A DNA stretch of 15,216 nucleotides, from the IMG/VR virus record IMGVR_UViG_2582581022_000009, one strand, 5' to 3'. The stretch comes from a virus. Its lineage: Duplodnaviria; Heunggongvirae; Uroviricota; Caudoviricetes. Below, piece by piece: positions 12,560 through 13,813 of this stretch. The notes under the pieces were generated by a model, which searched no databases, had not been told where the DNA came from, and was given only the letters and a program-made list of their open reading frames with translations. How positions within the stretch are numbered: the first letter of the stretch is position 1; every line of letters begins with the position of its first letter. Both the position numbers and the translations under genes were made by a program.

Positions 12560-12985
12560 TCAATGCACAGCCACAATATTTCCTGCAGGGCCACCACGAT
12601 TCATCTGGTTGAAACCAGCGATCGCCACTGCGACAAAATCATCAGCGTCTCTCACCAGTCGTTCCCGCGTCTCCACCAGCTCCCGAAAATAAGCTGAACT
12701 GTGGCTGCGCATTCGGGCCACCAGCAGAGGCGGCATTGCTTTTTCGATCGCTGGTAACAACGCCTGAATTTTTTTAACCGCATCAGGAGTGTCTTTCTCC
12801 ACCCAGCGGAAAATTTTCTGGGTATTGCGAGCCAGGGCTTCCGGATGGCTGTCGTCATATAATTCCGGGAACGTCATACCAAGCTCAAAATAAGCCCGGG
12901 TTATTTCAGCTGCCGGAACTTTTTCACCGTCCGGATGCGCCCAGGCATTCATCGCCATGCGGATGTGCTCATGCCTGATTTTCAT
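12560..12985 (-). CDS. YdaT-like protein (Rac-type early gene downstream of cro-like)
   Basis: 141 aa MKIRHEHIRMAMNAW...IVAVH; size, MKIxHEHI N-terminus and position after a YdaS-like Cro match my recollection of Rac YdaT; GGAG RBS. Confidence 0.5.
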   Translation of the reverse strand: MKIRHEHIRMAMNAWAHPDGEKVPAAEITRAYFELGMTFPELYDDSHPEALARNTQKIFRWVEKDTPDAVKKIQALLPAIEKAMPPLLVARMRSHSSAYFRELVETRERLVRDADDFVAVAIAGFNQMNRGGPAGNIVAVH

Positions 12986-13244
12986 GAATCAACTCCGATG
13001 CATTTGGTGTGTTAGCCTTGAATCCAACAGGTAAGCCGTCGGTTGGATTCGGGTAAATATCAGGCCGGAGTTCATGAGGTGTAACCTCGAAATTCGTTAC
13101 TTCAGCAACACGTAATGCTTTTTCAGGGCTGAATCTTTCATAGCCCCCCAGCACTCGACTTACATGCACCTGAGATAAACCCGTTAGCTTCCCAAACTGT
13201 AGCTGGGTGATATGTTTCTCTTTTAAATAGTCTCTTAAGTTCAT
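12969..13244 (-). CDS. Cro-like HTH regulator (YdaS-like family)
   Basis: MNLRDYLKEKHITQLQFGKLTGLSQVHVSRVLGG...TPHELRPDIY: HTH followed by an ELRPD motif; divergent from the repressor gene; AAGG RBS before ATG 13244. Confidence 0.55.
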   Translation of the reverse strand: MNLRDYLKEKHITQLQFGKLTGLSQVHVSRVLGGYERFSPEKALRVAEVTNFEVTPHELRPDIYPNPTDGLPVGFKANTPNASELIHENQA

Positions 13245-13250
13245 AGCCAA

Positions 13251-13351
13251 CCTTCTACGTTATGCCTCGAGCAAATATTAGCCCCGCTAATTTTAAAGAT
13301 CAATAGCCAGACTATCTTTGATAATATTGGTAAAACAAATAAACTCTATGT
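13251..13351. promoter_or_regulatory. Immunity-region divergent promoter/operator region between cro-like and repressor genes
   Basis: 101-bp AT-rich intergenic region with two AATATT palindromic cores (13274-13279, 13323-13328) and inverted repeat AAAGAT...ATCTTT (13295-13319); the repressor ATG has essentially no leader RBS, as for lambda cI from PRM. Confidence 0.4.
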
Positions 13352-13813
13352 ATGAAAAAAACACGCGAAGTGATTGCAACTCCAGAAGCGAGCAAGAATT
13401 TAAAAGCCGCATGGAATGCAAGAAAAAAAGAGCTGAAGCTGACTCAAGAGCTGGCGGCTGAGTTGTTGGGATTCGAATCTCAAGGCACCGTTAGCCAGTA
13501 TCTGAACGGCAAGATACCGGTAAATACCGACGCTGCGCTAAAATTTGCGGCTCTGTTAAAGGTAAAACCAGAGGACATTCGAGAAGACCTTAAAGACTTA
13601 ATGAATTATGTAAGATCATCAGATACTTATGATGATAACTTTTCAGGCAAAGGATGGAGGCTGGTCAATGAAGAACAGGCAGAGTTACTTAACCTCTTCG
13701 AGATTCTACCTGCGTCAGAAAAAGCCAAACTCCTTAACCAGCTACGTGGACTAAACAAGCTCTACGAGGAAGCCTTCGAGAACATGCTGGCACTAAAGAA
13801 ACGTAACCAGTAG
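13352..13813 (+). CDS. Prophage repressor, XRE-family HTH, without recognisable S24 (LexA-like) autoprotease domain
   Basis: 153 aa; HTH LKLTQELAAELLGFESQGTVSQYLNGKIPVNTDAALKFAALLKVKP; C-terminal 80 aa lack the Ser/Lys dyad context of CI/LexA; divergent to the cro-like gene. Confidence 0.7.
   Translation: MKKTREVIATPEASKNLKAAWNARKKELKLTQELAAELLGFESQGTVSQYLNGKIPVNTDAALKFAALLKVKPEDIREDLKDLMNYVRSSDTYDDNFSGKGWRLVNEEQAELLNLFEILPASEKAKLLNQLRGLNKLYEEAFENMLALKKRNQ

Follow-up and report, generated by a model that had tools for sequence, protein, structure and literature searches.

A helix-turn-helix (HTH) repressor gene and a divergently oriented pair of YdaS-like and YdaT-like genes occupy positions 12560–13813 of a 15,216-nucleotide stretch of Caudoviricetes DNA (IMG/VR virus record IMGVR_UViG_2582581022_000009), which is called the window throughout this report. 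We conclude, with a probability of roughly 0.85, that this module is the lysis–lysogeny switch of a lambdoid prophage, of the CI/Cro/CII type, and that its repressor belongs to the DicA/PaaR2 class without a peptidase domain. The switch is a new example of a design known from the prophages Qin and CP-933P, and not a new system. Its only mildly novel feature is a chimeric repressor, in which a cI-like DNA-binding domain and operators of the type found with S24-bearing Stx2-phage repressors are combined with a DicA-type C terminus. The Pfam and RefSeq labels that call YdaS and YdaT toxins invite a toxin–antitoxin reading, but the evidence described below points to equivalents of Cro and CII.

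The repressor gene (13352–13813, plus strand) encodes 153 amino acids. Facing it on the minus strand are the ydaS-like gene (12969–13244; 91 amino acids, with its ATG at 13244) and the ydaT-like gene (12560–12985; 141 amino acids), and the divergent intergenic region between the repressor gene and ydaS spans 107 bp (13245–13351). An earlier note on this DNA had described an HTH repressor opposite divergent YdaS-like and YdaT-like genes, and a check of open reading frames (ORFs) together with Pfam recovered all three in these positions. On identical DNA, the RefSeq labels are “helix-turn-helix domain-containing protein,” “YdaS family helix-turn-helix protein,” and “toxin YdaT family protein.” PHROGs labels the first product as a repressor or regulator, the YdaS-like protein as a repressor, and the YdaT-like protein as a “CII-like transcriptional activator.”

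The same trio, with an 82-amino-acid Cro and a 106-bp spacer, recurs in prophages of Hafnia and Serratia. The repressors of these loci are 153–154 amino acids long and are 71% (Hafnia) and 58% (Serratia) identical to the one examined here, and the trio as a whole is conserved at 58–71% protein identity with the same spacing. Our results for this locus concern gene content, homologies, the absence of an S24 domain, the positions of motifs, and the conservation of the module. For the homologues in CP-933P, published work has demonstrated that the operators and promoters function, that the switch is bistable, and where YdaT binds.

Domain architecture and relatives of the repressor

The Pfam scan placed an HTH_3 domain at residues 23–75 of the repressor (38.6 bits) and found no Peptidase_S24 domain (PF00717) in this protein. 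As a positive control, the same scan recovered S24 at 98.8 bits in an Stx2-phage cI protein that matches the repressor at 50% identity in its N-terminal domain. Homologues with N-terminal domains that are 50–60% identical carry PF00717 (P0023, P0025–P0028, and P0030), and one of these is the cI of Stx2-converting phages. Against the cI protein of the Stx2-converting phage Lyz12581Vzw, the repressor is 50% identical over residues 14–89, where the alignment ends.

An AlphaFold2 model of the repressor, built on ten homologues, consists entirely of helices with zero beta strands, and its HTH domain is predicted with confidence. The best Foldseek matches of this model are lambda cI N-terminal domains (29% identity, root-mean-square deviation of 2.4 Å, 79 columns), and full-length lambda cI (3bdn) aligns over 83 columns that cover its N-terminal part only. 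The resemblance to the lambda cI N-terminal domain is also evident by sequence (E 2.6e-4). The description of the protein in the earlier note as a repressor without an autoprotease domain is therefore borne out by Pfam, by the all-helical model, and by Foldseek. A cryptic S24 fold was searched for with the same three approaches, including the Pfam positive control, and is excluded.

Because it has no S24 domain, the repressor cannot be inactivated by RecA-stimulated self-cleavage, as the earlier note had also held. Related observations have been made for other prophages. Sp6, Sp9, and Sp10 encode repressors without a peptidase motif and are not induced by mitomycin C (PMC2669165), and the absence of this motif from PaaR2 has likewise been tied to a lack of induction by mitomycin C (PMC8630535). 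A repressor of the DicA/PaaR class predicts prophages that are not directly SOS-inducible. Sequences matching the LexA-box pattern CTGTN8ACAG occur nine times in the window where 5.2 are expected, and none is found at a relevant intergenic position.

The earlier note further held that derepression would require an antirepressor or protease and pointed to a cassette, probably the pair of genes at 5265–6999 (minus strand), and this part of the proposal did not survive. The cassette matches the RosmerTA defence pair in PADLOC, with RmrA (368 amino acids) scoring 349 bits and RmrT (216 amino acids) scoring 86 bits. It is true that the RmrA-like protein (5265–6371) carries HTH_3 and Peptidase_M78 (IrrE/ImmA-like) domains and that the repressor lacks the capacity for self-cleavage, and such a combination could reflect an ImmR/ImmA-type circuit wherein the M78 protein cleaves the repressor and thereby causes derepression. 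However, this is the only M78 protein present, it belongs to the matched RosmerTA pair, it resides 7 kb from the repressor gene in the nin-region moron slot beside a hok/sok locus, and the Hafnia and Serratia loci with repressors of this family lack it. We find a circuit of this kind hardly credible, and the RosmerTA cassette is very unlikely to provide the derepressing protease.

Profile comparisons place the relatives of the full-length repressor elsewhere. The repressor family aligns with DicA from the Qin (Kim) prophage with an hhalign probability of 94.9% (E 4.7e-8, residues 24–153 against 15–133), and with a PaaR-like repressor, a PaaR paralogue from the paaR-paaA-parE prophage locus of O157:H7, with a probability of 91.3% (E 9.4e-7) through the C terminus. 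A C-terminal motif, E-L-L-x-x-F-x-x-x-P-E, is common to all three proteins. DicA, which is about 28% identical to the repressor, is a full-length homologue and shares the C-terminal motif ELLxLFxxLPxxE. The phage record Rac-SA53 contains a repressor that is 99% identical to the one examined here and is annotated as dicA. We regard the repressor as a distant relative of DicA and not as a DicA orthologue, because the NCBIfam model for the DicA subfamily scores it far below the cutoff.

The label “Rac-type” applied by the earlier note is apt for the general layout of the locus, given that racR-ydaS-ydaT of Escherichia coli K-12 likewise consists of a repressor gene divergent from a YdaS-YdaT operon that continues into replication genes. 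The label does not extend to the repressor family, because RacR shows no homology to the window repressor (hhalign probability of 1.0%, and zero BLASTP matches at E ≤ 10). A RacR-family repressor is thus ruled out by BLASTP and hhalign, and the protein is instead a homologue of DicA and PaaR.

The operator region that faces the repressor gene (OR; 13242–13354) can be aligned with the OR of phage Lyz12581Vzw (L014 1351–1461), with 67 invariant columns of 117. The cI gene of this phage, unlike the window repressor gene, encodes an S24 peptidase and has a normal Shine–Dalgarno sequence. Because the two OR regions are alignable and the DNA-binding domains are shared, these data suggest that the DNA-binding domain moves along with its operators, whereas the C-terminal domain was exchanged. 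Compared to lambda and Stx2-phage cI, with which it has a homologous N-terminal domain, the window repressor carries a helical DicA-type domain of about 55 amino acids in place of the S24 C terminus, and so cannot undergo RecA-stimulated autocleavage. We therefore describe the protein, from its sequence relationships, as a probable fusion of a lambda-cI-like HTH domain with a DicA/PaaR-type helical C-terminal domain that includes no S24 peptidase. The apparent domain swap with an S24-bearing Stx2-phage cI is a modest but clean case of modular repressor evolution.

One might go further and propose that the helical C-terminal domain of this natural chimera is a sensor, for example one that is targeted by an antirepressor or a host protease or that reads a growth-phase signal, and not a mere oligomerisation module. 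We consider a sensory role unlikely. If it were true, then the lineage would show lambdoid phages swapping their induction inputs with immunity specificity kept, and the two repressors would form a tractable pair for finding the non-SOS induction signal of DicA-class prophages. A search of a library of 1.84 billion representative sequences with the C-terminal domain gave only five matches, a query too short to gauge how widely the domain is spread.

The YdaS-like and YdaT-like partners

The product of the ydaS-like gene is a small HTH protein encoded by the first gene of the operon that would be transcribed from a PR-like promoter, and a Shine–Dalgarno sequence, AGAAGG, was read from the sequence at 13251–13256. 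It is recognised by the Pfam family YdaS_toxin (PF15943) at 30.9 bits, a marginal score given the cutoff of 30, and by HTH_3 at 29.3 bits, and it falls into PHROG 35 (2.2e-25). It is 49% identical to YdaS of O157, 54% to its Hafnia counterpart, and 47% to its Serratia counterpart. These characteristics are consistent with its assignment as a Cro analogue.

The YdaT-like protein exceeds the cutoff of its Pfam family, YdaT_toxin (PF06254), more clearly (39.1 bits against 21) and matches PHROG 163, “CII-like transcriptional activator” (2.5e-45). With the protein in Protein Data Bank (PDB) entry 3c4r it shares 97% identity, and with YdaT of the O157 paaR-paaA-parE locus 90%. A phmmer comparison with 8bt1, the YdaT of CP-933P, gave an E value of 4.2e-79, with about 85% identity by a hand count of the alignment. 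We predict that this protein is a functional equivalent of CII, composed of a POU-type HTH domain and a tetramerising helix.

The closest well-studied system is therefore CP-933P (Sp12) of O157:H7 (PMC8630535, PMC9986795), which has the same gene order and orientation. In CP-933P, PaaR2, YdaS, and YdaT act as CI, Cro, and CII, the footprints of PaaR2 and YdaS overlap, and both proteins repress PR, PRM, and a PL-like promoter (PMC8630535). YdaT is a nontoxic activator of a PRE-like promoter, and the locus behaves as a bistable switch that changes state in stationary phase (PMC8630535). The structure of YdaT has been published, and the protein binds as a tetramer to the sequence TTGATTN6AATCAA where ydaS ends (PMC9986795). 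Like the window module, CP-933P/Sp12 has an HTH repressor that is devoid of a peptidase and is homologous in its C-terminal domain, about 100 bp between the divergent genes, a YdaT protein that is about 85–90% identical and whose operator occupies the corresponding position, and ydfA/ydfB-like genes downstream. The two systems also differ. In CP-933P/Sp12 the paaA2-parE2 toxin–antitoxin genes follow the repressor gene, whereas the window repressor gene is monocistronic, with a terminator behind it; the window repressor's DNA-binding domain, unlike that of CP-933P/Sp12, is of the cI-like lineage of lambda and Stx2 phages; and the N-terminal HTH of YdaS differs, with 49% identity overall.

The earlier note drew on the Rac prophage for a different interpretation, in which YdaS and/or YdaT are toxins whose silencing makes the repressor essential. 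Two reports on K-12 Rac describe RacR as essential and expression of ydaS/ydaT as toxic (PMC5700373, PMC5700377), the YdaT of Rac acts through rcsA to cause filamentation and death (PMC11879457), and Pfam calls both families toxins. The distribution of the repressor gene could be read in the same way. Among 5426 complete E. coli genomes, it is present in 180 (about 3%), always with at least 80% coverage, and a truncated copy was found in none of these 180. The N-terminus of the cognate cro gene together with the OR segment is likewise present, by a separate count, in 180 genomes with at least 80% coverage. However, linkage alone explains the co-occurrence of two genes that are 100 bp apart. 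A truncated repressor elsewhere (P0021) was considered as a natural knockout and rejected, since the neighbouring genes are also fragmented and sequencing frameshifts are the probable cause.

Several other observations make toxin-based addiction improbable. The YdaS and YdaT proteins of Rac are of the same Pfam families as those of the window but are each only 32% identical to them, and the effects of Rac YdaT on growth and on rcsA are not transferable to the window protein. The much closer YdaT of CP-933P was reported to be nontoxic, and the authors of that study concluded that YdaS and YdaT do not form a toxin–antitoxin pair (PMC8630535). Even the toxin status of the K-12 proteins is contested, given Jobling’s argument that the toxicity of such Cro/CII-type regulators comes from overexpression and that a lysogen is the only setting in which a prophage repressor is essential (PMC5917428). 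Moreover, the ydaT type of the window is carried by deposited phage genomes, where it is annotated as cII, and by 3068 of the 5426 E. coli genomes (57%), in company with many different repressors. PADLOC reported no toxin–antitoxin or defence match for the repressor, YdaS-like, or YdaT-like proteins. The claim that YdaS/YdaT toxicity makes the prophage addictive is thus not upheld.

If the module is a switch of the CI/Cro/CII type, then harm from loss of the repressor is still to be expected, because a repressor of the DicA/PaaR class predicts damage through derepression of the early operons. The prophage of this strain is defective, with a truncated Q gene and an inserted IS3 element, and loss of the repressor would therefore unleash these operons without lysis. 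The repressor may well be essential in the Q-truncated prophage for this reason, and not through toxicity of YdaS or YdaT.

Predicted promoters, operators, and mechanism

The promoters, operators, and leaderless start described below are all predictions made from sequence. A PR-like promoter directed towards ydaS (13275–13303, minus strand) was read from the sequence and comprises a −35 element TTGATC (13303–13298), a 17-nucleotide spacer, and a −10 element TAATAT (13280–13275). A palindrome in OR, AAATATTAG-CCCCG-CTAATTTTA (13273–13295), covers this −10 element and the spacer. On the far side of the repressor gene, the promoter scan identified a PL-like promoter, TTGACT-17-TAATAT (13967–13995, plus strand), whose hexamer types and spacing are those of the PR-like promoter. 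A second palindrome, AAATATCCG-CGTTA-CTAATATTT (13975–13997), overlaps the PL-like −10 element within the leftward operator region (OL). An exact half-site, CTAATATTT, is located distally in OL at 13901–13909, and the promoter scan reported a second promoter-like site, TTTACA-18-TATCAT, at 13926–13955.

Both 9-N5-9 palindromes therefore cover TAATAT −10 elements. The pattern AAATATTAGN5CTAATATTT, when up to three mismatches are allowed, matches the window only at these two sites compared to 0.01 matches expected from shuffles, although the consensus was derived from the same two sites that it identifies. The heptamer TAATATT occurs exactly four times between 12400 and 14400, and all copies lie inside the two intergenic regions. 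In Rac-SA53 the palindrome half-sites are conserved and the spacers differ. The PR and PL regions share 19 of 20 nucleotides in Hafnia and 29 of 37 in Serratia, both above shuffled controls. The palindromes over both −10 elements and the likeness of PR and PL in these two relatives are compatible with operators that may be shared between PR/PRM and a distant PL. CP-933P/Sp12 has a comparable arrangement, with a PL-like promoter that matches PR in its hexamer types and is accompanied by OL sites (PMC8630535). The operator sequences are different, however, being CTAATATTT half-sites in the window and GTTTAGTAA-type repeats in CP-933P/Sp12.

A second element resembling a half-site in OR, GATAATATTGG (13320–13330), overlaps the −35 element of a PRM-like promoter and is kept as AATATTAGT in Hafnia and as AAATTAGT in Serratia. 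The PRM-like promoter itself, TTGATA-16-TAAACT (13318–13345, plus strand), was found by the promoter scan, and its predicted start at about 13352 coincides with the A of the repressor ATG. No Shine–Dalgarno sequence precedes this start codon, and an in-frame stop codon (13340–13342) is present just 5′ of it. The −10 hexamer lies equally far from the ATG in each of three diverged loci, with TAAAAT in Hafnia and TAGAAT in Serratia. Given the PRM start at the ATG, the missing Shine–Dalgarno sequence, and the upstream in-frame stop, the repressor mRNA looks leaderless, for which paaR2 and cI are precedents (PMC8630535). A perfect inverted repeat at 13838–13871, flanked by a run of A and a run of T nucleotides, can form a hairpin with a 14-bp stem (−19.7 kcal/mol, z = −5.9). 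This hairpin is predicted to end the repressor transcript and to separate the repressor gene from PL.

The operon that would be transcribed from PL begins with four genes on the plus strand (14067–15024). These are a DUF1391/ydfA-like gene (14067–14222; Pfam DUF1391, 96.4 bits), a ydfB-like gene (about 14224–14352), a ydfC-like gene (14382–14600), and a gene for a 133-amino-acid protein with no assigned function (14623–15024). In strains 042 and ML35, which carry identical DNA, RefSeq annotates the ydf genes as being followed by dicB, DUF1482, exonuclease, xis, and int genes beside ompW. The layout recalls that of Qin in K-12 (dicA-dicC/ydfABC-dicF-dicB), where the repressor gene likewise has a small Cro-like gene opposite it and ydfA, ydfB, and ydfC behind it, and the relatives of the window prophage continue in a similar way with dicB and a DUF1482/ydfD-like gene. 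The Cro partner is YdaS-like in the window and DicC-like in Qin, and the gene after dicC in Qin (ydfX) is a truncated YdaT-like remnant that is 36% identical over 95 amino acids. An Rfam scan of the window found sok only, and no dicF.

A candidate YdaT operator, OM (CTGATTTTCATGAATCAA, 12975–12992), overlaps the end of ydaS and the ydaT start codon. It departs at one position from TTGATTN6AATCAA, the footprinted site of CP-933P, and is the best match to this pattern in the window. Its position, where the ydaS coding region ends, is that of the published OM in CP-933P. The O157 locus has a perfect YdaT site within a 181-bp stretch in which 158 of 181 aligned bases (about 87%) are identical to the window. 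The number of matches to the pattern in the entire window (two, compared to 0.99 expected) is not above chance, and the candidate is therefore supported by its position and orthology, and not by pattern counts.

The region surrounding OM also appears to be a mosaic joint (about 12962–12995). Phages that share the ydaT gene of the window match it up to about position 12995, and the match of Rac-SA53, whose ydaT is of the K-12 type, runs onwards from 12962. The roughly 30 bp common to both correspond to the YdaT operator and the first eight ydaT codons, which read MKIRHEHI in either YdaT type, and may be a conserved recombination linker between the immunity and cII/replication modules.

We propose that the switch operates with the same logic as lambda-type switches, which employ PR, PRM, PL, and a CII-type establishment factor. 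The repressor would be made from the PRM-like promoter as a leaderless mRNA ending at the hairpin, and its HTH domain would bind the palindromes over the −10 elements of the rightward PR-like and leftward PL-like promoters. PR would drive ydaS (cro), ydaT (cII), the O/P-like replication genes, and the nin region, and PL would drive the ydfA/B/C-like genes and, in the relatives, dicB, exonuclease, xis, and int. The helical C-terminal domain, which is common to DicA and PaaR, probably gives oligomerisation, which the literature describes for PaaR2, and cooperative or looped binding. YdaS, acting as Cro, would compete for the same operators and make the switch bistable, and a YdaT tetramer, acting as CII, would bind the inverted repeat at the ydaS/ydaT junction and activate an establishment promoter directed towards the repressor gene. 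RecA cannot trigger self-cleavage of this repressor, and switching would have to be stochastic, tied to growth phase, or brought about by some other factor. In this strain, loss of the repressor would be expected to activate the replication genes together with the PL operon but not to bring about productive lysis.

Several results weigh against this interpretation. The C-terminal helices of the repressor model (residues 107–118 and 121–152) are of low confidence, with predicted local distance difference test scores of about 42–58, and a profile of the C-terminal domain gave no credible match among PDB sequences and thus no solved structure. The NCBIfam model for the DicA subfamily (NF007257) scores the repressor at 35.1 bits, far below its cutoff of 101, with profile positions 7–132 of 135 aligned. 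The O157 protein used for the PaaR comparison comes from a paralogous locus and is not PaaR2, and its N-terminus is unlike the published MQKKE of PaaR2. Regarding the promoters, the PR-like sequence agrees with the consensus at eight of 12 positions and falls under the promoter-scan threshold, no PRE-like promoter exceeds that threshold, and a plain local alignment of PR and PL from the window shares only a 9-mer and is not above shuffled controls; the circular derivation of the palindrome consensus belongs with these points. In addition, dicB, xis, and int are seen only in the relatives, outside the window.

Conservation and prophage context

The full 1.6-kb module with this YdaT type is found as identical DNA in many chromosomes, and is present in 138 of the E. 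coli genomes. Full-size prophages with a 100% identical module reside at ompW in strains including 042 and ML35. The identical repressor/cro module is also carried by two large E. coli plasmids, NZ_CP195449.1 (195 kb) and NZ_AP026904.1 (237 kb). These plasmid copies could represent phage-plasmids or prophages inserted into plasmids.

The earlier note referred to a prophage remnant, which is accurate for this strain, whereas closely related prophages are full-sized. Sequence similarity to the intact ones begins at position 3105, within the first 26 or so codons of Q (ORF 2988–3182), and the segment 5′ of this point is the tail-fibre/invertase region of another prophage type. Specifically, positions 1–3182 contain C-terminal variants of a tail-fibre gene, a tail-fibre assembly gene, and a Pin/Gin-type serine invertase gene (2455–3027) that abut the truncated Q gene and rusA. 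This junction is absent from all complete E. coli genomes in the collection, which indicates that the strain carries a deletion or a rearrangement between prophages.

A rival reading is that the module is an inert relic that no longer regulates anything, its genes surviving only because the prophage decayed recently. The truncation of Q at about 3105 onto the tail-fibre/invertase segment of another prophage and the IS3 insertion at 8326–9593 are consistent with this view. In contrast, all three ORFs and the predicted operators, promoters, and terminator are intact, the module is 100% identical to the copies in full-size prophages, and its proteins and spacing are conserved as far as Hafnia and Serratia. 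We thus judge an inert module to be highly improbable, and favour a switch of the CI/Cro/CII type that is retained in a defective prophage.

Other features of the window, outside the repressor and its partners, are recorded here for completeness. The IS3-family element (orfA and orfB; 8326–9593, plus strand) is located between the prophage queH gene (7558–8244) and a DUF977 gene (9749–10189), and it is missing from the otherwise nearly identical (99.5%) prophage of ML35. The hok/sok type I toxin–antitoxin locus beside the RosmerTA pair (7165–7490, minus strand) consists of a sok RNA recognised by Rfam at 120.5 bits (7315–7490) and a hokD-like ORF (7165–7377). The replication module (10994–12494, minus strand) encodes an O-like initiator of 348 amino acids with a DnaT DNA-binding domain (Pfam DnaT, 64 bits) and a lambda-P-like helicase loader, and its two longest ORFs overlap by about 210 nucleotides.

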